Shown in pieces: positions 1 to 10,894 of a stretch of 10,894 nucleotides of DNA. Made by a program: the position numbers and the translations under genes. The notes beneath the pieces are model-generated. The model saw only the letters and a list, made by a program, of their open reading frames with translations. It was not told the DNA's origin and ran no database searches. How positions within the stretch are numbered: the stretch's first letter is position 1; every line of letters starts with the position of its first letter. The stretch spans positions 1 through 10,894 of the IMG/VR virus record IMGVR_UViG_2617270939_000004. One strand, given 5' to 3'. Source of the stretch: a virus. Lineage: Duplodnaviria; Heunggongvirae; Uroviricota; Caudoviricetes.

Positions 1-405
1 GAGGCCTTCCCCGGGTTAATCCGGCAAACCCACCGGAAAATCAGGTCAGCCGCCGCCGATGGCGCTTACGATACCCGGCTATGTCACGATGAACTGCGGC
101 GTAAGAAAATCAGCGCGCTTATCCCTCCCCGAAAAGGTGCGGGTTACTGGCCCGGTGAATATGCAGACCGTAACCGTGCAGTGGCTAATCAGCGAATGAC
201 CGGGAGTAATGCGCGGTGGAAATGGACAACAGATTACAACCGTCGCTCGATAGCGGAAACGGCGATGTACCGGGTAAAACAGCTGTTCGGGGGTTCACTG
301 ACGCTGCGTGACTACGATGGTCAGGTTGCAGAGGCTATGGCCCTGGTACGAGCGCTGAACAAAATGACGAAAGCAGGTATGCCTGAAAGCGTGAGTATTG
401 CCTGA
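1..405 (+). CDS. IS903-like DDE transposase, C-terminal portion (5' end outside the window)
   Basis: Frame 1 is open from base 1 to the TGA at 403-405, so the listed 181..405 ORF is only the tail of a longer protein. The translation ends ...LVRALNKMTKAGMPESVSIA, typical of an IS903-group transposase C-terminus, and the IS terminal repeat follows about 40 bp downstream. Confidence 0.8.
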   Translation, partial: EAFPGLIRQTHRKIRSAAADGAYDTRLCHDELRRKKISALIPPRKGAGYWPGEYADRNRAVANQRMTGSNARWKWTTDYNRRSIAETAMYRVKQLFGGSLTLRDYDGQVAEAMALVRALNKMTKAGMPESVSIA

Positions 406-461
406 AAACACAACCCGCTACGGGGGAGACTTACCCGAAATCTGATTTATTCAACAAAGCC
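1..461 (+). mobile_element. Right end of an IS903-group (IS5 family) insertion sequence; partial, continues beyond the window start
   Basis: Positions 444-461 read GATTTATTCAACAAAGCC, the reverse complement of the IS903/IS102-type terminal inverted repeat GGCTTTGTTGAATAAATC (recalled from memory). The transposase C-terminus lies immediately upstream. Confidence 0.8.
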
Positions 462-559
462 GTTACGATGCTGCAAAAAATGAGATATCACCGCCAAATG
501 GCACTTCTTATACTGCATCAGAAATTTCTATCAAACGTGTTCCTGATGGGCTGTGTCGA

Positions 560-802
560 GTGAGTAATTCATTGGTTAAGACTATCGAATATAATGGAAA
601 TGCAGGCGGTGTAATGAAGTTCACCTATCGTGAATTTGCAAACGATATGGCTCGTGCAGCATTTACAACAGATTTTTCTGTAGATTCTAAGGGAAGTGAT
701 GTTATCGCTTACAAAGGTGCCAAGTTCAAAGTGAACAAGGCTGATAACTCGTCTATTTCTTATACAATTATTTCTGGCTTTGACAAGGCTGTCACGTTCT
801 AG
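560..802 (+). CDS. Hypothetical small protein, possibly the 3' remnant of a gene interrupted by the IS
   Basis: The reading frame is open from 446 to 802, crossing the IS boundary at 461/462. No convincing ribosome-binding site precedes GTG 560 or the first in-frame ATG at 614. The product is Ser/Thr/Asn/Lys-rich and ends in ...GFDKAVTF. I recognise no family. AT-rich like the downstream operon. Confidence 0.3.
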   Translation: MSNSLVKTIEYNGNAGGVMKFTYREFANDMARAAFTTDFSVDSKGSDVIAYKGAKFKVNKADNSSISYTIISGFDKAVTF

Positions 803-906
803 GTTTCACGCTTACTGAGTATGTTACGATTTTGCACATTCTGCATAAACGCGCATGTCTATGCTGCATGAGATCGCATGATCGTTTGAGGATCTTTTGT
901 GTTAAG

Positions 907-930
907 GCCCGCCAGTTCTGGCGGGCTTTT
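907..930 (+). terminator. Rho-independent terminator
   Basis: GCCCGCCAG (907-915) pairs with CTGGCGGGC (918-926) in a GC-rich hairpin, followed by TTTT (927-930). It separates the small ORF from the ATPase operon. Confidence 0.55.
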
Positions 931-1112
931 GCGTAGATCATGCAGGTGCATGAAAACCACTACATAAAGCGGGCAGGCGTGGCGGGGATACGAGCGCGCG
1001 CTGTGCTGTGTGGTATAGGCCTTAATTTAGTATGATTCAATAGTGTCGGGAGCTTTGCGCTGATCAGTCCTAAGTTATATGATAAGAAAAATGCATAAAA
1101 AAGGTTCGGTTC

Positions 1113-2087
1113 ATGGGGTTAGGATTAAAAGACGCTATTGTGCATACCGCTGCGTTTCATCAAAAGGAAACTAATGAATTGCAATTGCCAAACAATCATT
1201 GGCATCCTGGTTTTATCACTGTCTTAGCAGCTTACGTGAATCATCACAAAATTACCGAAGATAACTGTGTTTTGTCATGCCCGGGCTATATGCGAGCTAT
1301 CAATTTACATGGTGCTTTATGGGGAGAGGATCAGTATCAACAGGAACGTGTAAATGTTGGAAGAAATTACAGTTTGGTTACAGCATTAACCAATGTTGAA
1401 GCTGTTGACGTTGCCACTGGTAGTATTAACAGTTGTGTAAGGCAGTTAACATTCCCTGATCGTGATCCGAGAGATTGTCCCAAGGGACTTACAGATCTAA
1501 CCCATGTTATAGGTGAGCTTCACGATAACGTTTGGTCGCATGGAAAATCAACGGGTTTTTCTTTTGCACAACGTTCGGCTGTACCCCACACTCAAAAAAA
1601 AGAGCACTATTTAGAATTTTCTTTGGCGGACTGTGGGTTAGGATTTCTCCGAGAATTGCGGCGAGCTGGTATACCCGGAATTGAGACTCACCAGGATGCG
1701 ATCGCATGGTGTATTCAAGAGGGACATTCATCTAAGCATGCTGATTTGCAGGATGATTGGGCACAGCAGCTTCCCCAGGACTTTATTGGGGGTAGTGTGT
1801 TTGGCCACGGGGTTTCGGTCAAAGAAAAAGATAATAATCATCAAGGGCTTGGGTTGTATCACTTGATGAAATTGATAAAAACATATAATGGGGAATTGCA
1901 ACTGGCTTCAGGAAATGTATGCTTAGAAGCAATAGGTGATGAAGTGAGCTATACTGAATTACGTACTGAATGGCCGGGTGTAGCAATTTCTTGCCGTTTT
2001 AAGATTCATGAACTGGCAGTCGATAAAGATAGCGAAGAAAATGACCCTCAGCTTATGGAAATAATGCGGGCGTTAGGAGGAGAGTAA
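1113..2087 (+). CDS. GHKL (Bergerat-fold) ATPase, anti-sigma-factor/serine-kinase-like, with an uncharacterised N-terminal region of about 125 aa
   Basis: The translation carries an N-box E135-LHD-N139-VWS-H143, a G1 box D173-C-G-L-G177 and a G2 box G245-L-G-L in the canonical order for GHKL ATPases. No histidine-kinase dimerisation/phosphoacceptor region is evident. A-rich stretch with AAGG lies 9-12 nt upstream of ATG 1113. AT-rich, unlike the flanking phage genes. Confidence 0.7.
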   Translation: MGLGLKDAIVHTAAFHQKETNELQLPNNHWHPGFITVLAAYVNHHKITEDNCVLSCPGYMRAINLHGALWGEDQYQQERVNVGRNYSLVTALTNVEAVDVATGSINSCVRQLTFPDRDPRDCPKGLTDLTHVIGELHDNVWSHGKSTGFSFAQRSAVPHTQKKEHYLEFSLADCGLGFLRELRRAGIPGIETHQDAIAWCIQEGHSSKHADLQDDWAQQLPQDFIGGSVFGHGVSVKEKDNNHQGLGLYHLMKLIKTYNGELQLASGNVCLEAIGDEVSYTELRTEWPGVAISCRFKIHELAVDKDSEENDPQLMEIMRALGGE

Positions 2088-2425
2088 TGAACAAAATCGC
2101 ATACAAGTTACCCGAGGGTGACCTGGCTTCGCGCAATCAGGCTATCCCCCAACGACACAAGATTGAAGGGTTCATTAAAGAAGGGTATACCGTAGATTTA
2201 GATTTGAGCGGTGTTTATTCAATTTCAGAATCATACTCTGATGAAATCTTTGGTGTTTTGGTAGTGAAATTCGGTGTAACCAAAGTTTTGAGTCAAGTTA
2301 AGGTTCGCAATGCACCCCCTTCAATTTTAAAAAGTATTGCAAAAGTGATCCAACGCCGTAGTAATGAAGTAGCATCAAAAAAGGTTCATTCCGTTGGATT
2401 TGATGGTTTATACGCCGTTTGTTAA
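2087..2425 (+). CDS. Small STAS-like protein (anti-sigma-factor-antagonist-like; DUF4325-type by recollection)
   Basis: Its ATG overlaps the upstream TAA as TAATG at 2085-2089, and a strong AGGAGG (2075-2080) sits 6 nt upstream, indicating translational coupling. The motif TVDLDLSGVYSISESYSDEIFGV (residues 35-57) resembles the D-L-S-G-V...S-S-G core of SpoIIAA/RsbV-type STAS domains, with candidate phosphorylatable serines at 45-51. Confidence 0.65.
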   Translation: MNKIAYKLPEGDLASRNQAIPQRHKIEGFIKEGYTVDLDLSGVYSISESYSDEIFGVLVVKFGVTKVLSQVKVRNAPPSILKSIAKVIQRRSNEVASKKVHSVGFDGLYAVC

Positions 2426-2442
2426 TATATGGTTAGTTAGAT

Positions 2443-2468
2443 AAAAGGCGCTGAGATTAGCGCCTTTT
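2443..2468. terminator. Bidirectional rho-independent terminator between the cargo operon and portal gene Q
   Basis: A perfect 10-bp stem, AAAAGGCGCT (2443-2452) with AGCGCCTTTT (2459-2468), encloses a 6-nt loop. It is flanked by an A-run on one side and a T-run on the other, so it can terminate on either strand. Confidence 0.6.
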
Positions 2469-2471
2469 CTT

Positions 2472-3509
2472 TTATTCCTGAACACCTAAAACATAGTCAT
2501 CAAAACGTATTACTTCTGCACCCACCCATTCGTTTAGTTCATGTAGTCGCTTCTGTAGTGGCATCAATTCATTGCGAACAAATACAAGACTAGCCTTCTC
2601 CACATCCCCAAAACCCCCAACATTATTTGGCATAATCCCCATCATCTGTGGCGGAACGCGATGTGCTGCCATCATGTCATCGCGGCTGACATTTTTGATA
2701 TTCAGAAACTCATCCTTCGCCGCAACTTCTGACAAAGGGATGATCTGAAGGCCGTCCTTTTTGCCGTTAGGCGAGTACATAAACAGGTTGCGGAAGTTGC
2801 CTGGACCTTTGGCGCTTTTCATCGCGTTGCGGAGATTGTTCACATCCTCCTGATTCTGCGCGGCGTCGGTCATGTACATGATGAAGCCTGCATGGCTGCC
2901 GTTGATGTAATACTTACGGCGGAACAGCGTGGCGGACTCATTGAGCAGGGCTGACGGAATGGCAGAAAGATAGCCGGGCAGGCCGTAGATCTCCTGGTTA
3001 ATGTCCGGTTCCATCAGATGAAAGATGCTGCCTTTCGTGAACTGATACGGCTGTGTTGTCATACCGTATTGCACAAACCAGTAGGTTTCTAGGTCTAACC
3101 CGCGTCGGGTGTATTTTGCCAGGGCCGGTTCAAGGGCGATAACTTCACCGAAGCGGTTCGTGCGTTTCTCCAGGTAGGCGTTACCAAATACCAGATAGTC
3201 CTGCACAAAACGTGAAAAAGCCTGCTGGCTGAGCAGCGGGTGAGGGATGTAGGTACTGGTCAGAATGTTGCACTTTACTGCAATCGGGGAACTGTGATGC
3301 ACAGCAGCGCGGAAGGTGCGCGCCAGTCCGTCAAAGCTGACAGGAGGCTCATACCAGCGATCTGTCTGTACGCATTCCACATAGTCCAGCAGTTCGCGGC
3401 GGTCAAGTACTGGAATGGGATCACCGAAGCTGAATGCTTCGGCTGTAGTCTGGCTTTTAAGCTGGCTCTGTTTCGTCGCCGCAGCGCGGTTCTTCTTACT
3501 CTTTCCCAT
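2472..3509 (-). CDS. Q: P2-family portal protein gpQ
   Basis: The 345-aa translation closely follows P2 gpQ as I recall it (...FGDPIPVLDRRELLDYVECVQTDRWYEPPVSFDGLARTFRAA...). I place the start at ATG 3507-3509, preceded by GGAG, rather than the TTG at 3510-3512 used by the ORF track. This ATG overlaps the stop of P by one base. Confidence 0.93.
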   Translation of the reverse strand: MGKSKKNRAAATKQSQLKSQTTAEAFSFGDPIPVLDRRELLDYVECVQTDRWYEPPVSFDGLARTFRAAVHHSSPIAVKCNILTSTYIPHPLLSQQAFSRFVQDYLVFGNAYLEKRTNRFGEVIALEPALAKYTRRGLDLETYWFVQYGMTTQPYQFTKGSIFHLMEPDINQEIYGLPGYLSAIPSALLNESATLFRRKYYINGSHAGFIMYMTDAAQNQEDVNNLRNAMKSAKGPGNFRNLFMYSPNGKKDGLQIIPLSEVAAKDEFLNIKNVSRDDMMAAHRVPPQMMGIMPNNVGGFGDVEKASLVFVRNELMPLQKRLHELNEWVGAEVIRFDDYVLGVQE

Positions 3510-5275
3510 CAAAAAATCTCCACAATATTGCTGGTATTGGCGGACTCGCCCTGCAGCGGTTCGTTAAAGAGTGCGTGCATTGTTGCCCAAGCCAGATCGG
3601 CATGGCTGGCTTCTTCGCTGCGGCTGGCTTCATAGGTCGGGCGGTTGCCGCTGGCGGTGGTGGCGCGACGGATTGCCATGAATGACTGCGCAATGTCGGT
3701 GTGTCCGGCGTCAAATTCTAGGCGGCGGTGACTGATAATGTCGTAGGCCTTGAGTACCAGGGCGTTTTTAACGTTGGGGTTGTAGACAAACTCCCGGACG
3801 GCAGGAAAGAATGCTTTCACGTTCTCGTAAACCCCGTGGCCGACGCCAGTTGAGTCGATGCCGATGTATGTCACGTTGTACTGTTCGGTCAGTTTTTTGA
3901 TGGCGTCAGCCTGGGCGCGGAAGTCCACCCCGCGCCACTGGTGACGCTCAAGAATGCGGAACTTACCGCCCGGCACGGCTGGCGGTGCCACCACTACGCA
4001 TCCGGCGCTGTCGCCGTTTTGCGTACCTTTTGCCGGGTCATAACCGATCCACACTTCGCGCCAGCCAAAGGGGCGCAGAGCCAGTGCATGAAAGTCGGTC
4101 CAGACTTCCCAGCTGTCCACCATGCACGCCTGCAGCTCGCTGAGCGGGAACACGGACGCGAGATCGTCCACGAACTCGCACATCAGCAGGTTCTGGTATT
4201 CGTCCGGGCTGTACTCCATGCGCAACTGGTCAAGGTCGAACAGGTTACAGCCGCCGCGCACCGCATCTTCCACGGTGACTATCTGGCGGTATTGCCCGTC
4301 TGCGCACAGCAGGCCGGGGGCCAGATTGCTGTGGGACAGGTCGATGTCCACCTTATCGGCTTTGTTGCGCCCACGGTTGAACAGCGCACCAGACCAGAAC
4401 GGATAAGCACTGTGTGTCAGGCTGGATGGCGTGGAAAAATAGGTTTGTCGCCATTTTTTGTGAATAGCCATACCGGAAGCCACTTTGCGCAGCTCCTGGA
4501 ATTTCGGTATCCAGAAATATTCATCCAGATACAGGTTGCCGTGATAACTCTGGGCAGTGCGGGCATTGGTGCCGAGGAAGTAAAGCGTGGCCCCGTTAGG
4601 AAGCACCATCGGATCGCCTTTCAGCTCCACCTCGACTTCTTTGGCGAAGTCGATGATGTATTGCTTAAAGACGTGAGCCTGTGCCTTACTGGCAGAAAGG
4701 AAAATCTGGTTACGTCCGGTAAGCAGGGCGTCAATCAGGGCTTCACGGGCAAAGTAAAAGGTCGCGCCGATCTGGCGTGACTTCAGCAGATTACGGATGC
4801 GGTTGGTTTTTCCAGCTTCCCACCAGTGGCGCTGGTAGTTGAACATGGAGGAATGGAAGATTTCTTCCAGCTTCTCAATCTGTTCATCGGTGAAAACATT
4901 CTTTTCCGGCTGACGGCGCGGCCCTTTGTTGCGGTTGGCGACGTTAGGGTTTAAGTCGGCTTCGTTGCCGCCATTGTTAAACTTGCCGATCCGCGCGTGG
5001 CGCTCCGACTGGCGTGCCAGCAGGTCAATTTCTTTGAAATCTTTCCCTTCTTTGTGCTCCTTCATAATGAGCTGGCAATAGCGTGCGGCGGTGGTGAGCT
5101 GCATCTGATCCAGCGGCCCATAGTCACCCCACTTGTCGCGTTTTTTCCAGCTGTGAACGGTTGCAACTTTCTCGCCCAGCATTTCAGCAATGCGGGCTAC
5201 GCGGTATCCCTGAAAGTACAGCAGCATGGCCTGCCGACGGGGATCGAGATCTGCGGGTGTCAGTGTGGTGTTCAT
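3509..5275 (-). CDS. P: P2-family terminase large (ATPase) subunit gpP
   Basis: 588 aa, the size and sequence character of P2 gpP. It lies immediately upstream of Q on the same strand with an overlapping stop/start, matching the P2 Q-P arrangement. Confidence 0.93.
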   Translation of the reverse strand: MNTTLTPADLDPRRQAMLLYFQGYRVARIAEMLGEKVATVHSWKKRDKWGDYGPLDQMQLTTAARYCQLIMKEHKEGKDFKEIDLLARQSERHARIGKFNNGGNEADLNPNVANRNKGPRRQPEKNVFTDEQIEKLEEIFHSSMFNYQRHWWEAGKTNRIRNLLKSRQIGATFYFAREALIDALLTGRNQIFLSASKAQAHVFKQYIIDFAKEVEVELKGDPMVLPNGATLYFLGTNARTAQSYHGNLYLDEYFWIPKFQELRKVASGMAIHKKWRQTYFSTPSSLTHSAYPFWSGALFNRGRNKADKVDIDLSHSNLAPGLLCADGQYRQIVTVEDAVRGGCNLFDLDQLRMEYSPDEYQNLLMCEFVDDLASVFPLSELQACMVDSWEVWTDFHALALRPFGWREVWIGYDPAKGTQNGDSAGCVVVAPPAVPGGKFRILERHQWRGVDFRAQADAIKKLTEQYNVTYIGIDSTGVGHGVYENVKAFFPAVREFVYNPNVKNALVLKAYDIISHRRLEFDAGHTDIAQSFMAIRRATTASGNRPTYEASRSEEASHADLAWATMHALFNEPLQGESANTSNIVEIF

Positions 5276-5321
5276 GGCACAAACCTACAACCTTGAATGA
5301 AGGCTTTCCCCGCCTGCGGTT

Positions 5322-5339
5322 TGTGTGGTTGTCGGTACA
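5322..5339. promoter_or_regulatory. Candidate Ogr/Delta activator site (TGT-N12-ACA) of a P2-type late promoter
   Basis: TGT (5322-5324), 12 nt, then ACA (5337-5339), in the 142-bp divergent P-O intergenic region. It is centred about 88 bp upstream of the O start codon, compatible with the -55 position described for P2 late promoters. It is the only exact TGT-N12-ACA in this intergenic region. Confidence 0.35.
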
Positions 5340-5417
5340 AATACCGCGCATTGTTTCACTGCCACCATCACCGCAACCATAAGGCTCCAGTAAGTTTTTT
5401 CTAACGGAGCACAGCTC

Positions 5418-6251
5418 ATGACAGTGAAAGCAAAGCGTTTTCGCATCGGGGTGGAAGGTGCCACCACCGACGGACGCGAAATCCAGCGTGAATGGCTGGA
5501 ACAGATGGCAGCCAGCTACAACCCGACGATGTACACCGCGCTGATTAACCTTGAGCACATCAAGTCTTATCTGCCGGACAGCACCTTTAACCGCTACGGC
5601 AAGGTGACGGCGCTGTTTGCTGAAGAAATCACGGAAGGTCCGCTGGCAGGCAAGATGGCGCTGTATGCCGACGTTGAGCCAACGGAATCACTGGTGGAAC
5701 TGGTGAAAAAAGGCCAGAAATTATTCACCTCTATGGAAGTCAGCCCGAAGTTTGCTGATACGGGCAAAGCCTACCTGGTCGGCCTGGCTGCCACTGATGA
5801 CCCTGCCAGTCTGGGCACTGAAATGCTGACATTCAGCGCCAGTGCAGCCCATAACCCGCTGGCAAACCGCAAGCAGAATCCCGCCAATCTTTTTACCGCT
5901 GCAGAGGAAACGGTGATCGAACTGGAAGAAATCCAGGATGACAAACCGTCCCTGTTTGCCCGTGTCACGGCGCTGTTCACCAAAAAAGAGCAGTCCGATG
6001 ACGCCCGGTTCTCTGATGTGCATAAGGCCGTGGAACTGGTCGCCACTGAGCAGCAGAACCTGAGTGCGCGCACCGAAAAATCCCTGTCTGAGCAGGAAGA
6101 ACGCCTGTCTGAGCTGGAGACTGCCCTGCAGGCACAGCAGACCGCCTTTAACGAACTGGTGGACAAGCTGAGCCAAGAAGACAGCCGCCAGGACTACCGC
6201 CAGCGTGCAACAGGCGGTAACGCCCCCGCTGACACTCTGACCAATTGCTGA
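5418..6251 (+). CDS. O: P2-family capsid scaffolding protein gpO
   Basis: 277 aa, diverging from P at the position P2 O occupies. The sequence resembles P2 gpO from memory, including a C-terminus ending ...TNC. Confidence 0.9.
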   Translation: MTVKAKRFRIGVEGATTDGREIQREWLEQMAASYNPTMYTALINLEHIKSYLPDSTFNRYGKVTALFAEEITEGPLAGKMALYADVEPTESLVELVKKGQKLFTSMEVSPKFADTGKAYLVGLAATDDPASLGTEMLTFSASAAHNPLANRKQNPANLFTAAEETVIELEEIQDDKPSLFARVTALFTKKEQSDDARFSDVHKAVELVATEQQNLSARTEKSLSEQEERLSELETALQAQQTAFNELVDKLSQEDSRQDYRQRATGGNAPADTLTNC

Positions 6252-6267
6252 TGGAGCACAAAACCTG

Positions 6268-6441
6268 ATGAAGAAGAACACCCGCCGCCGTTCAGTTATC
6301 GACAACCCGAAACGTGACCGGATTGAAAACTTTGAATCCGTTAACGAAGCCTATGTGGTTGAGGACTACCGCTGCGCCGCACTGGTGGAAAACATCCAGA
6401 TTGGTGATTTCAGCGCCGCCGCAGCCGAAACCGGAGCGTAA
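6268..6441 (+). pseudogene. N: Remnant of major capsid gene N (57 codons, where P2 N is about 357)
   Basis: This short ORF (MKKNTRRRSVIDNPKRDRIENFESVNEAYVVEDYRCAALVENIQIGDFSAAAAETGA) occupies the N position between O and M. It resembles the extreme C-terminus of P2 gpN as I recall it (...RRVIEENPKLDRVENYESMNIDYVVEDY...VGDFS...). The stop is 3 nt before the M start, as at a normal N-M junction. Confidence 0.55.
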
Positions 6442-6444
6442 TCC

Positions 6445-7095
6445 ATGAGCCTGAGTCCCGCACGGCAGCATCGCCTGCGCGTTCAGGCTGAACAGGCCGC
6501 CCGCGAGGGCGGCAGTGTTCGCCACGCATCGGGCTATGACCTGATGCTGCTGCAACTGGCGGAAGACCGCCGCCGTCTCAAGGGCGTTCAGTCCACGGTC
6601 AAAAAAGCGGAAATCAAGGTGGAGCTGCTGCCGAAGTACGCCGCCTGGGCAGAGGGTGTCCTGGCTGCCGGAGGCGCTCAACAGGATGACGTGCTGATGT
6701 ACGTGATGCTGTGGCGCATTGATGCCGGAGATTATGCCGGAGCGCTGGAGATCGGGCGTCATGCCCTGCGTCATGGCTGGGTGATGCCGCTGGGTAACCG
6801 CAACGTGCAGACCGTGCTGGCAGAGGAAATGGCAGACGCCGCGCAGAGCGCAATGCTTGCCACCACCGGCTTTGATGCCGATCTGTTGCTGCAGACGCTG
6901 GAGCTGACAGACGGTCTGGATATGCCGGACCAGTCACGGGCGCGTCTGCATAAAGCGATTGGCGCGGTCCTGAGTGAAAGCAATCCGGCGTCTGCCCTTA
7001 ATCATCTCAACCATGCGTTACAGCTCGATCCCCGCTGTGGCGTGAAAAAAGACAAACAGCAGCTGGAGCGCAGACTGCGCAATGACAGCCGCTGA
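6445..7095 (+). CDS. M: P2-family terminase small (endonuclease) subunit gpM
   Basis: 216 aa. The N-terminal region (MSLSPARQHRLRVQAEQAAREGGSVRHASGYDLMLLQLAEDRRRLKGVQS...DDVLMYVMLWRIDAGDYAGALEI...) matches P2 gpM by recollection, and the gene follows N in P2 order. Confidence 0.9.
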   Translation: MSLSPARQHRLRVQAEQAAREGGSVRHASGYDLMLLQLAEDRRRLKGVQSTVKKAEIKVELLPKYAAWAEGVLAAGGAQQDDVLMYVMLWRIDAGDYAGALEIGRHALRHGWVMPLGNRNVQTVLAEEMADAAQSAMLATTGFDADLLLQTLELTDGLDMPDQSRARLHKAIGAVLSESNPASALNHLNHALQLDPRCGVKKDKQQLERRLRNDSR

Positions 7096-7190
7096 CAGAA
7101 CGTGCCCCCGCGCACGGGCGGCACGGGGTGGCGAAAGGCACTGCCACATCAAAACCCCGTCCACCGCCCTCTATTTCAGGAGAAAGCAGC

Positions 7191-7730
7191 ATGAAGTTTG
7201 TTGCGCCAGAACAGGCACCGGAACAGGCGGAAATCATCAGAAATACGCCGTTCTGGCCTGATGTGGACCTGTCGGAGTTTCGCAGTGTCATGCGCACTGA
7301 CGGCACGGTGACGCAGCCGCGTTTAAAGCAGGTTGCGCTGTCGGCAATTTCGGAGGTCAACGCAGAGCTGTATGAGTTTCGCAGACGCCAGCAGATGCTG
7401 GGGTATGCCTCGCTGGCAGAGGTTCCGGCGGAACAGCTGGACGGCAAAAGTGAGCGCATTCAGCACTATTTCAACGCGGTTTACTGCTGGGCACGCGCCA
7501 TGCTCAACGAACGTTACCAGGACTATGACACCACGGCATCCGGTGTGAAGCGGGGCGAGGAACTGGCGGAAGCCAGCGGTGATTTATGGCGTGACGCCCG
7601 CTGGGCCATCAGCCGGGTAGATGATGCGGAATGGACCATTACGACTCTGACGCATACCGTCAGCCCCGATAACGGTTTTACAACCAGTCTGGAGCTTGAA
7701 GTGAGGATTGATGATTTCGAAATGGAATGA
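7191..7730 (+). CDS. L: P2-family head completion protein gpL, with a C-terminus that may be altered by a deletion junction
   Basis: I start it at ATG 7191, which has AGGAG at 7178-7182 eight nt upstream; the ORF-track start at 7128 lacks comparable support. The product is 179 aa. The central region (...NAELYEFRRRQ...LAEVPAEQLDG...DLWRDARWAI...) is gpL-like. The last 35 residues or so do not resemble the gpL end I recall. Confidence 0.75.
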   Translation: MKFVAPEQAPEQAEIIRNTPFWPDVDLSEFRSVMRTDGTVTQPRLKQVALSAISEVNAELYEFRRRQQMLGYASLAEVPAEQLDGKSERIQHYFNAVYCWARAMLNERYQDYDTTASGVKRGEELAEASGDLWRDARWAISRVDDAEWTITTLTHTVSPDNGFTTSLELEVRIDDFEME

Positions 7731-7820
7731 TTCTTCGCAATGGAGAACTTTTAAGTTTGCAAAATGGAATAATGCGGTATCATTATTGTGAATTTAGCAA
7801 AAATGGGGAGAACTCGAAAA

Positions 7821-8039
7821 ATGATGATTTGCCCACTGTGTGGAAGTGCCGCCCATACTCGCAGCAGTTTTCAGGTATCTTCATTGACCAAAGAGCGTTA
7901 CAACCAGTGCCAGAACATTAACTGCAGCCATACTTTTGTTACCCATGAAACTTTTGTTCGTTCGATTGCAACGCCAAAAGAGTCAAATCCGGTTCAGCCG
8001 CATCCAATGAAATCAGGACAGGTGGCGCTCTCTCTTTGA
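7821..8039 (+). CDS. ogr: Ogr/Delta-family zinc-finger late-gene transcription activator
   Basis: 72 aa starting MMICPLCGSAAHTRSS..., with an exact C4-x2-C7-x22-C30-x4-C35 zinc-finger spacing, as in P2 Ogr. GGGGAG (7806-7811) lies upstream of ATG 7821. The ORF-track GTG start at 7788 is probably too far upstream. Confidence 0.88.
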   Translation: MMICPLCGSAAHTRSSFQVSSLTKERYNQCQNINCSHTFVTHETFVRSIATPKESNPVQPHPMKSGQVALSL

Positions 8040-8125
8040 CGCTGCCGCCATTTTGTCGCCATCGTTAAAAAACAGTGTTTCTAACATCATGATTTTAAAC
8101 AGCTTAAATTTCAGGCAACAAAAAA

Positions 8126-8162
8126 CCCATCAACCTTGAACCGAAATGGCGGGGTTGATGGG
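8126..8162 (-). terminator. Rho-independent terminator downstream of ybjL
   Basis: CCCATCAACC (8126-8135) pairs with GGTTGATGGG (8153-8162) in a 10-bp stem around a 17-nt loop. On the minus strand it is followed by a run of six T (complement of 8120-8125). Confidence 0.5.
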
Positions 8163-8274
8163 CTCCACAAAATGGGGACATCAAAGAAAAGCAGTGGCAC
8201 TAATTAAGACTGATGCCCTGCGGAAAAGTTCTGCGGTTGTGCAAAAAAATTTCATTTTCAGGGCAACTTCAGTT

Positions 8275-9960
8275 TTATCCTAATCCTGGCCATACCATGA
8301 CGATGATTGTCCCTGCCAGCGTCAGCAGGACGTTGGCGATTGCGTAGGTGCCCGCATAGCCCAGCGCAGGGATGTTACTGCGAGCTGTATCACTGATGAT
8401 CTCCATTGCCGGCGCGCAGGTGCGTGCGCCCATCATTGCGCCGAACAACAGTGCGCGGTTCATTCGCAATACATAAGCACCGAACAAGAAACAGATAACC
8501 ACGGGCACAAGACTGACAATTAATCCGGCAATCAACATCTGACCGCCAATCGCGCCCAGGCCGTTATTAATACCGCTACCGGCGCTCAGACCAACGCCTG
8601 CCATAAACACCATCAAGCCGAACTCTTTCACCATGCTTAATGCACCTTGCGGAATGTAACCGAAGGTCGGGTGGTTAGCACGCATAAAGCCCAGCATAAT
8701 TCCGGCGAATAACAACCCGGCAGCGTTCCCCATGCCGAAACTGAATGTGCTGAACTGGAAGGTGATCATCCCGATCATCAGCCCAATAACAAAGAAGGCG
8801 CAAAATGCCAGCAGGTCAGTGACCTGGCTGTGAATCGAGATAAAGCCGATGCGATCGGCGATGGTTTTTACGCGACGGGCATCACCGCTGACTTGTAAAA
8901 CGTCACCTTTGTTAAGCACGACGTTGTCATCTATCGGCATCTCAATCTGGCTACGAATGACGCGGTTAAGGAAGCAACCGTGATCGGTCAACTTCAGTTG
9001 TGCGAGACGTTTACCTACAGCGTTATGGTTTTTAACGACCACTTCTTCAGTGACGATACGCATGTCGAGAAGGTCACGATCGAAAACTTCTTTACCGTTA
9101 CGGAAGCTGGGATCGAGTCGGGCATGGGCGTCGGGATAGCCTACCAACGCTATTTCATCGCCCATTTGTAGCACGGCATCACCGTCTGGATTTGCCAGAA
9201 TCCCGTTACGTCGAATACGTTCAATGTAGCAGCCGGTTTGTCGATAAATACCCAGTTCACGCAGATTTTTGCCGTCGGTCCAGGCCACCAGCTCCGGGCC
9301 GACGCGATAGGCGCGGATCACCGGTAAATAAACCTTACGGTTGGCATCAGTGTCCAGGCCACGTTCGCGGGCGATTTGCTGGGCGCTGGTCTGTAAGTCC
9401 TGATGCTGCAATTTCGGCAAGTAACGCGCACCAACAATCAAACTCACCAGACCGATTAAATAGGTTAAGGCATACCCGAGGCTCAGATTATCCAGTGCCA
9501 GTGAGAGCTGCCTGCTTTCCATGCCGGAATGACGCAGTGTATCGCCAGCACCGACCAGAACCGGTGTCGACGTCATAGAGCCTGCTAACATACCGGCCGT
9601 CAGGCCAATATCCCAGCCAAACAGCTTACCTAACCCTAAGGCGATCACCAGCGCACTGCCAACCATCACCAGTGCTAACATTAGGTAATTTTTCCCATCG
9701 CGAAAAAAAATGGAAAAAAAGTTCGGTCCGGCTTCGACCCCGACGCAGAAAATAAACAGCATAAAGCCAAGATTAAGCGCGTCGGTGTTAATGCTGAAAT
9801 GTTGTTGGCCTAATAACAGTGATACGACCAAAACGCCAATGGAATTACCCAGTTGGATCGAACCAAGTCGTAACTTTCCGAGACATAGCCCAAGCGCGAG
9901 GACCACAAATAATAACAGAATGTAATTCCCATTTAACAATTCGGCGACGTTTATATTCAC
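8275..9960 (-). CDS. ybjL: Putative transport protein YbjL (AAE-family inner-membrane transporter)
   Basis: The 561-aa translation ([39 protein letters not shown]...VMVWPGLG) matches E. coli YbjL from memory. It is multi-spanning and hydrophobic, with a central soluble region. Confidence 0.93.
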
Positions 9961-10229
9961 GGAGGCTAACTTCTTGTTTACTAGTAAGCTGTTGAAAGAA
10001 ATGGTAATTTACGATAATGTTTTTTACCAGAATTCAGGGCGCAGATTCATTCAGCGCACCTAAACGATAGTAAAGTAACAATATATTTTACTAGTGTAAT
10101 CACATTAGGTATCAACGGCTATATGAATTGCGTTGGCCTATATTAGCATGGAATGCGAAGCGGCTTTATCTTACTGAACGCCACACTGGCGAAAAATGTG
10201 TTCGATAGACGCAGTGTCAGGAGGAACGA

Positions 10230-10607
10230 GTGAAACATAAACAACGTTGGGCGGGGGCAATCTGCTGTTTTGTCCTCTTCATTGTGGTGTGCCTTTTTCT
10301 GGCGACGCACATGAAAGGCGCTTTTCGGGCTGCCGGGCATCCTGAAATCGGCTTGCTGTTTTTCATTCTTCCTGGAGCAGTTGCCAGTTTCTTTTCACAG
10401 CGTAGAGAAGTCCTGAAACCTCTATTTGGCGCAATGCTGGCGGCACCCTGTTCAATGCTTATTATGCGGCTGTTTTTTTCACCGACCCGCTCATTCTGGC
10501 AAGAGCTGGCATGGTTACTAAGCGCGGTGTTCTGGTGTGCGCTGGGGGCACTGTGTTTCTTATTTATCAGTAGTTTGTTTAAACCACAGCACAGAAAAAA
10601 TCAGTAA
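10230..10607 (+). CDS. ybjM: Inner membrane protein YbjM
   Basis: 125-aa hydrophobic protein with a GTG start preceded by CAGGAGG. Its position between ybjL and grxA and its divergent orientation match the E. coli ybjL-ybjM-grxA arrangement. Confidence 0.88.
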   Translation: MKHKQRWAGAICCFVLFIVVCLFLATHMKGAFRAAGHPEIGLLFFILPGAVASFFSQRREVLKPLFGAMLAAPCSMLIMRLFFSPTRSFWQELAWLLSAVFWCALGALCFLFISSLFKPQHRKNQ

Positions 10608-10627
10608 AGCCCTCAACGCGAGGGCTT
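10607..10627. terminator. Shared hairpin terminator between convergent ybjM and grxA
   Basis: AAGCCCTC (10607-10614) pairs with GAGGGCTT (10620-10627) around a 5-nt loop, placed between the two convergent stop codons. Confidence 0.5.
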
Positions 10628-10636
10628 GTCAGACGA

Positions 10637-10894
10637 TCAGGCGTCCAGATTTTCTTTCACCCATGCAGCAAAATCGGTATAGCCGCCGATATGTTGCTGA
10701 TCGACAAAAATCTGCGGCACGGTTTCTACGGGTTTACCTGCCTTTTGTTGTAGATCTTCTTTAGTGATCCCTTCCGCACGAATATCTACATACTGATACT
10801 GAAAATCATCGCGTTCATTGCTCAATTTCTCAGCCAGATCTTTTGCACGCACACAGTAAGGGCAACCCGAACGACCAAAAATAACGGTTTGCAT
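10637..10894 (-). CDS. grxA: Glutaredoxin 1
   Basis: The 85-aa translation MQTVIFGRSGCPYCVRAKDLAEKL...AAWVKENLDA carries the CPYC active site and matches E. coli GrxA. The start codon sits at the very end of the window. Confidence 0.95.
   Translation of the reverse strand: MQTVIFGRSGCPYCVRAKDLAEKLSNERDDFQYQYVDIRAEGITKEDLQQKAGKPVETVPQIFVDQQHIGGYTDFAAWVKENLDA

Follow-up and report, generated by a model that had tools for sequence, protein, structure and literature searches.

An Open Frame at an IS903B Junction as the Very Probable Dead 3′ Half of a Split P2-Like Prophage Lipoprotein Gene

Introduction

The window analyzed here is a stretch of 10,894 nucleotides of viral DNA (Caudoviricetes; IMG/VR record IMGVR_UViG_2617270939_000004) that starts within an insertion sequence (IS) and continues into the genes of a prophage. 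A reading frame stays open across the end of the IS and runs on through a small ORF, which raises the question of whether the element landed inside a gene and, if so, which gene that was, what has become of its two parts, and whether it belonged with the cargo genes that follow. We are highly confident that the open frame is the dead 3′ half of a lipoprotein gene split by a recent and simple IS903B insertion, and that the gene was a stand-alone piece of P2-like prophage cargo. Coordinates of the features discussed are collected in Table 1; positions in the text are those of the window unless another contig is named.

Table 1. Features at and downstream of the IS junction, with the evidence for each. 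Positions are those of the window.
Feature	Position	Strand	Sequence	Evidence
3′ 461 bp of a 1057-bp IS903B-type IS (IS5 family)	1–461	+		Pfam, NCBIfam, RefSeq annotation, full copy in L008
IS5-family DDE transposase C-terminus, 134 aa	1–405	+		Translation, profile matches
Right terminal inverted repeat of the IS	444–461		GATTTATTCAACAAAGCC
Right-hand copy of the 9-bp target-site duplication	462–470	+	GTTACGATG	Repeated at both IS ends in L008
3′ remnant of 225-aa prophage lipoprotein gene, codons 114–225 and stop	464–802	+		Homology from 462; phrog_1353 match; 100% DNA identity to intact alleles
GC-rich hairpin followed by TTTT, terminator-like	904–933	+		Downstream of the lipoprotein gene, within the conserved cos-proximal block
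Putative cos site of the P2-like prophage	976–994	+	GGCGTGGCGGGGATACGAG	Likeness to annotated P2 cosL
Two-gene cargo module (context only, separate from the disrupted gene)	1113–2425	+		Pfam, phrog_3364, phrog_5816
324-aa protein	1113–2087	+
112-aa DUF4325 STAS-like protein	2087–2425	+		Pfam DUF4325, E = 3.1e-9

The IS End and the Open Frame

Read directly, the terminal repeat GATTTATTCAACAAAGCC at 444–461 is the reverse complement of the IS903-type repeat GGCTTTGTTGAATAAATC, which places the end of the element at 461. The C-terminal 134 aa of the transposase are matched by Pfam DDE_Tnp_1 (PF01609, E = 1.3e-15) and by NCBIfam transpos_IS5_2 (NF033579, E = 3.6e-37, profile positions 168–289 of 289), and matching E. 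coli copies carry the RefSeq annotation “IS5-like element IS903B family transposase.” When its length, left end and target duplication are taken from a sister assembly (L008, described below), the element shows every trait of IS903/IS903B (IS5 family, IS903 group): a length of about 1057 bp, perfect 18-bp GGCTTTGTTGAATAAATC ends, a 9-bp target duplication, and a single IS5-family DDE transposase. Nothing notable sets the window copy apart, of which the last 461 bp alone lie within the window.

The frame in question is closed inside the IS by a TGA at 443–445 and is then open for 119 codons, from 446 to a TAG at 800–802; an ORF scan gives GTG 560 as the earliest ATG, GTG or TTG within it, followed by ATG 614. 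The first-pass annotation, made from the sequence alone, had read these features correctly, with the repeat ending at 461, the frame open over 446–802 and the first start codons well inside. The share of the IS in the open frame is only 16 bases (446–461, five codons and one base), directly after the stop, and about 79% of random five-codon stretches are open. The continuity of the frame across the junction therefore has no significance in itself, and what rises above chance is the coding content downstream of 461. Direct reading places the transposase gene and the remnant in different frames, and this difference, together with the TGA that closes the remnant frame within the IS, makes a fusion protein impossible.

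The exact junction had no match in the species-representative genome collection, of which the source genome is not a member, and no junction-spanning sequence was found among complete E. coli genomes. The left end of the IS is not visible in the source assembly (GCA_000704025.1) because the draft contig, L033, begins inside the element.

The Gene in Uninterrupted Loci

Uninterrupted relatives have a single 225-aa lipoprotein gene at this place (WP_000700647.1; STM2726 of Fels-2; phrog_1353), and its carriers include E. coli HS, STEC1587, Fels-2, and Klebsiella P2-like phages. A megablast search with positions 462–1112 against 5426 complete E. coli genomes returned 50 genomes with at least 80% coverage. 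All of these alignments begin at query base 1, which is window position 462, and the gene is uninterrupted in every one of the complete E. coli genomes that carry it (50/50). In HS and STEC1587 the match is the 3′ part of a single annotated gene of 678 bp, whose 225-aa product, WP_000700647.1, is named “hypothetical protein.” When the window, HS and STEC1587 are aligned, identity starts at exactly 462 and the sequence upstream of it is unrelated; the stretch 462–1002 is 100% identical at the DNA level to intact alleles in several E. coli genomes. The proposal made at first pass, that an IS903-group element sits inside a gene and has left its 3′ portion, is upheld by this onset of homology at the very base that follows the IS.

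Searching the translation of the region downstream of the IS against protein families, as the first-pass annotation had advised, led to phrog_1353. The intact protein matches this profile over its full length (positions 1–230 of 230, E = 3.1e-105) and the window piece, 464–802, matches only positions 120–230 (E = 1.3e-50), so the window copy is a truncated member of the family. The remnant has no start codon, signal peptide or lipobox, and its two candidate starts are internal codons of the 225-aa protein, GTG 560 being codon 146 (V146) and ATG 614 codon 164 (M164). The N-terminus of the intact protein, MKINNVALPISLAVILTG/CVPH, comprises a lipoprotein signal peptide and a lipobox (LTG/C at residues 16–19), for which lipidation is predicted; this part of the gene belongs beyond the window, on the far side of the IS.

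The Insertion Event in a Sister Assembly

The sister assembly L008 (GCA_042749005.1) was found among contigs encoding the neighboring 324-aa protein. It is 99.97% identical to the window over 1–6285 and 99.96% identical over 6273–10894, and it carries a junction identical to that of the window. The complete IS lies at 8293–9349 of L008, is 1057 bp long, and has two perfect 18-bp ends. The 9-bp sequence GTTACGATG is found both directly before the left end (8284–8292) and directly after the right end (9350–9358, corresponding to window 462–470), and is thus the target-site duplication that the first-pass annotation had proposed to look for at the other end of the element. That annotation had also taken the 5′ portion of the gene to be lost, and here it was mistaken: the 5′ part is intact beyond the 1057-bp IS, at 7947–8292 of L008.

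When the IS and one copy of the duplication are removed in silico, a 225-aa ORF results that differs from that of STEC1587 at six synonymous sites and at no amino acid; the restored product is 100% identical to WP_000700647.1 and 99.1% identical to Fels-2 STM2726. The 5′ half was not lost, and the event is a simple, recent transposition, with the target duplication and the 5′ half observed in the sister assembly rather than in the source genome. Its recency follows from the identity of 462–1002 to intact alleles and from the perfect restoration of the ORF on excision. By the same comparison the remnant shows no decay, having accumulated no mutations since the insertion. Like STM2726, EcHS_A0921 of HS and WP_000700647.1, the gene lies between a DinI-like gene and cos, but unlike them it is split by an IS, and the window retains residues 114–225 alone.

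These observations can be brought together in a mechanism in which IS903B (1057 bp) transposed by ordinary cut-and-paste into codons 113–116 of a stand-alone 225-codon lipoprotein gene, duplicating the 9 bp GTTACGATG; the host gene is cargo that a P2-like (Fels-2-type) prophage carries in its variable cos-proximal hotspot. Because the window starts within the IS, it shows no more than the right end of the element (up to 461) and the last 112 codons of the gene (464–802), and the apparent passage of the frame over the boundary is due simply to the final 16 bases of the IS, after the TGA, which chance to be free of stops. The split gene is then a pseudogene, neither piece of which is expected to yield a working protein.

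Prophage Context and the Cos-Proximal Hotspot

The surrounding DNA is a P2-like (Fels-2-type) prophage that sits between the E. coli genes rcdA and ybjL. Its order is int, CI, and further genes, then gpA, a 62-aa ORF, the DinI-like gene, the lipoprotein gene, cos, cargo, portal Q, terminase P, and the genes that follow. The lipoprotein gene is therefore located between gpA and gpQ, beside cos, and the locus is the cos-proximal variable hotspot of P2-like phages described by Rousset et al. (2022; PMC9122126). P2 itself has the phage-exclusion genes tin and old in the same slot, between replication gene A and cos/portal Q (PMC9122126), but the lipoprotein has no sequence or profile similarity to P2 tin, old or the PADLOC defence models. 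The supplement of Rousset et al. lists WP_000700647 seven times as “hypothetical,” with varied partners, and lists a “hypothetical + DUF4325” pair separately from it (PMC9122126).

The putative cos site matches annotated P2 cosL (GGCGAGGCGGGGAAAGCAC) at 14 of 19 bases, with the common GCGCGCTG one base further on, and stands between the lipoprotein slot and the downstream cargo module. The hairpin that precedes it has a predicted RNA folding energy of −23.6 kcal/mol (z = −5.0), and none of 200 shuffled sequences was as stable. Both are part of a block, 853–1002, that is conserved in 1277 of the 5426 complete E. coli genomes. Identity to prophages that have the lipoprotein gene but other cargo stops at about 1002, a few bases past cos, and this break would be consistent with cargo swapping via recombination at the conserved block.

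Judged from its gene content, the prophage itself is defective. Relative to L008, L002 and L012, 873 bp of the P2-type major capsid gene N are absent at 6273–6285 (ORF 6268–6441); the two alignment blocks overlap there by 13 bp, and a 57-aa remnant ORF is left. The overlap suggests a deletion between short direct repeats in gene N, and the deletion allele, with entries in 72 blocks of the assembly collection, marks a lineage. Homology to intact P2-like prophages ends at about 7628, within head-completion gene L (ORF 7191–7730; boundary at about 7619–7820), and the next recognizable gene is ogr (7821–8039), so the late lysis, tail and baseplate genes are missing; L008 has the same deletion. After ogr comes ybjL, at 8275–9960 on the minus strand.

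In the module downstream of cos, the start of the 112-aa DUF4325 gene takes the last base of the upstream stop codon. The 324-aa protein has a sub-threshold match to HATPase_c (E = 0.09). Both genes map to a single profile of 441 positions, phrog_5816, the 112-aa protein at 345–440 (E = 6.4e-13) and the 324-aa protein weakly at 158–232 (E = 1.6e-4), and part of DISARM DrmA also resembles the 112-aa protein (E = 4.7e-6). PADLOC systems gave no match to the module, and a literature search for functions of DUF4325 and STM2726 turned up nothing. Upstream of the module, other genomes have at least five other genes (a DUF4145 gene, a 386-aa gene, a pair of 86 and 203 aa, an 883-aa HSDR_N protein) or no gene at all; downstream of the lipoprotein gene, they have a 463-aa protein (HS), STM2723.1 (Fels-2), AIPR proteins, or other cargo. 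Because cos lies between the two and each occurs with many different partners, comparative sequence evidence makes the lipoprotein gene stand-alone cargo and no component of the adjacent module.

Fate of the Two Gene Pieces and Alternative Explanations

The 5′ piece would consist of the signal peptide, the lipobox, 112 native residues, and up to five residues encoded by the IS; its IS-derived tail reads GLC, with a final D re-supplied by the target duplication. The AlphaFold2 prediction for an 88%-identical homologue (pLDDT 80.1) shows a single all-beta structure that runs on without a domain break at residue 113, with strands to either side of it. On this model each piece would be about half of a single all-beta fold, and neither should fold alone. 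The remnant is most likely inert, since the signal peptide and lipobox are missing from its predicted product.

Three other accounts of the open frame have to be weighed against this reading. If, as the first-pass annotation thought possible, the IS supplies outward transcription, transcription could reach the remnant from a promoter facing out of the IS, or from the transposase gene by read-through, and the resulting truncated protein could retain some activity or have gained a new one. Transposase gene and remnant do share a strand, a scan of 405–560 found no terminator-like site, a weak SD-like AGGCGG lies four bases upstream of ATG 614, and the remnant has no mutations, a fact that a recent insertion explains equally well. 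A scan of the plus strand over 300–740, however, found no sigma-70-like promoter reading out of the IS, though weak read-through from the transposase gene may occur. The difference in frame and the TGA at 443–445 rule out a fusion protein, and any product would lack signal peptide and lipobox and comprise between one quarter and one half of a single beta fold; we consider an active truncated protein very unlikely. It is highly improbable, too, that a deletion adjacent to the IS removed the 5′ part of a gene that was a further component or effector of the 324-aa and DUF4325 module, the role that had been suggested at first pass. That the left IS end is outside both the window and the source contig would allow such a deletion, and the module follows the gene on the same strand after only about 310 bp, but L008, whose junction is identical, retains the 5′ half intact and shows the 9-bp duplication. 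Moreover, cos (976–994) and a strong hairpin (904–933) separate gene and module, each of which pairs with other neighbors, and a 57%-identical homologue occurs alone in a Klebsiella island not derived from P2.

We give almost no credence to the remaining account, in which chance alone keeps the upstream frame open and GTG 560 or ATG 614 begins a short independent gene of 62–80 aa. The ORF list does contain 560–802 as an 80-aa ORF, and gene callers give a 62-aa product from 614 in both L033 and L008, with an identical 62-aa call in other assemblies. Those other calls sit among fragmented neighboring genes, however, and are read as frameshifted assemblies; the fragment covers just the last 60 of 230 profile positions, and 21 homologues of 215–238 aa align end to end. 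Every uninterrupted locus encodes one 225-aa protein that runs through 560 and 614, and these loci exclude the short gene that the first-pass annotation had named as the alternative. The 62-aa product was also considered as a count of the IS-interrupted allele and set aside as unusable, the neighboring genes in the matching assemblies (mainly, probably, Klebsiella) being fragmented as well. The open frame is thus best read as the dead 3′ half of the lipoprotein gene.

The Intact Lipoprotein Family

Among 21 homologues of the intact protein, G18 and C19 of the lipobox and two further cysteines (C80 and C144) are invariant, and none of the 21 has Asp at position +2. Under the well-established Lol sorting rule, an outer-membrane lipoprotein is therefore predicted. 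Homologues at 24–27% identity are found in Acinetobacter and Moraxella phages. Searches with the sequence of the 225-aa protein in Pfam, NCBIfam, PADLOC and PDB gave nothing meaningful (in PADLOC, no family at E ≤ 0.1), and a fold comparison of the predicted structure gave no convincing relative. An NCBIfam polysaccharide lyase match (E = 0.02, 13.9 bits vs. a cut-off of 366) was dismissed as noise.

In Klebsiella (contigs L026–L029), the gene for the 57%-identical homologue, at 4001–4672, lies outside any P2-like prophage. It lies on the border of an island that carries putAbiC-like, HTH and resolvase genes, beside Y_phosphatase3 and YkuD genes of the chromosome. Directly upstream of the intact gene, at 7887–7948 of L008, is a terminator-like hairpin of 11 pairs followed by a T-run; the sole promoter-like site upstream of the intact gene overlaps the ATG and is not credible.

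The same gene is also disrupted elsewhere. E. coli GCA_030510975.1 (L032, 3440–3633) has an independent disruption in which an IS5-family end, GGAAGGTGCGAATAAG, follows codon ~152 (…NSLVK/EGANKQ…), and the contig breaks inside the inserted IS. In Salmonella GCA_030107885.1 (L031, ~2975–3000) and in 24 contigs like it, the 3′ region of replication gene A is fused by a deletion directly to about codon 64 of the lipoprotein gene, with loss of the 62-aa ORF, the DinI-like gene, and the 5′ end of the lipoprotein gene. A 155-aa product, P0006, is a miscalled remnant from this deletion.

The most likely role for the intact protein, as a working hypothesis, is that of a lysogenic-conversion lipoprotein in the outer membrane. 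T5 Llp, phi80/N15 Cor and lambda Bor are phage superinfection-exclusion or lysogenic-conversion lipoproteins, and what it shares with them is that it is a non-essential lipoprotein, encoded by a prophage at an accessory locus and predicted to reside in the outer membrane. They differ from it in showing no detectable sequence similarity (Pfam gave no match) and no convincing fold relationship, and each is less than 100 aa long, vs. about 225 aa here. The location of the gene, in a non-essential slot otherwise occupied by phage-exclusion genes, hints at a superinfection-exclusion or phage-defence role, which we put forward tentatively. It is possible, if doubtful, that the protein is a single-gene outer-membrane exclusion or defence factor whose fold has no solved relative, acting, for instance, through receptor masking or a block to DNA entry. 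If this were true, the repeated disruption of the gene (by IS903B, by an IS5-like element, and by the Salmonella deletion) would mean that decaying prophages discard a defence that is costly or has become obsolete.

Significance

The event is ordinary and fully explained: an IS903B-split pseudogene of a catalogued hypothetical prophage lipoprotein. As a textbook IS903B inactivation of an accessory gene in an already defective prophage, it matters little in itself. A 2026 survey found defence-gene pseudogenes to be rare in P2-like prophages, and it describes transposable elements as thought to be infrequent in phage genomes (PMC13586616); the locus provides a specific example of a transposable element together with a pseudogenized cargo gene in the P2 cos-proximal hotspot. 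It also draws notice to a conserved lipoprotein family without known function or recognizable fold, which is a candidate for a cheap phage-exclusion assay.
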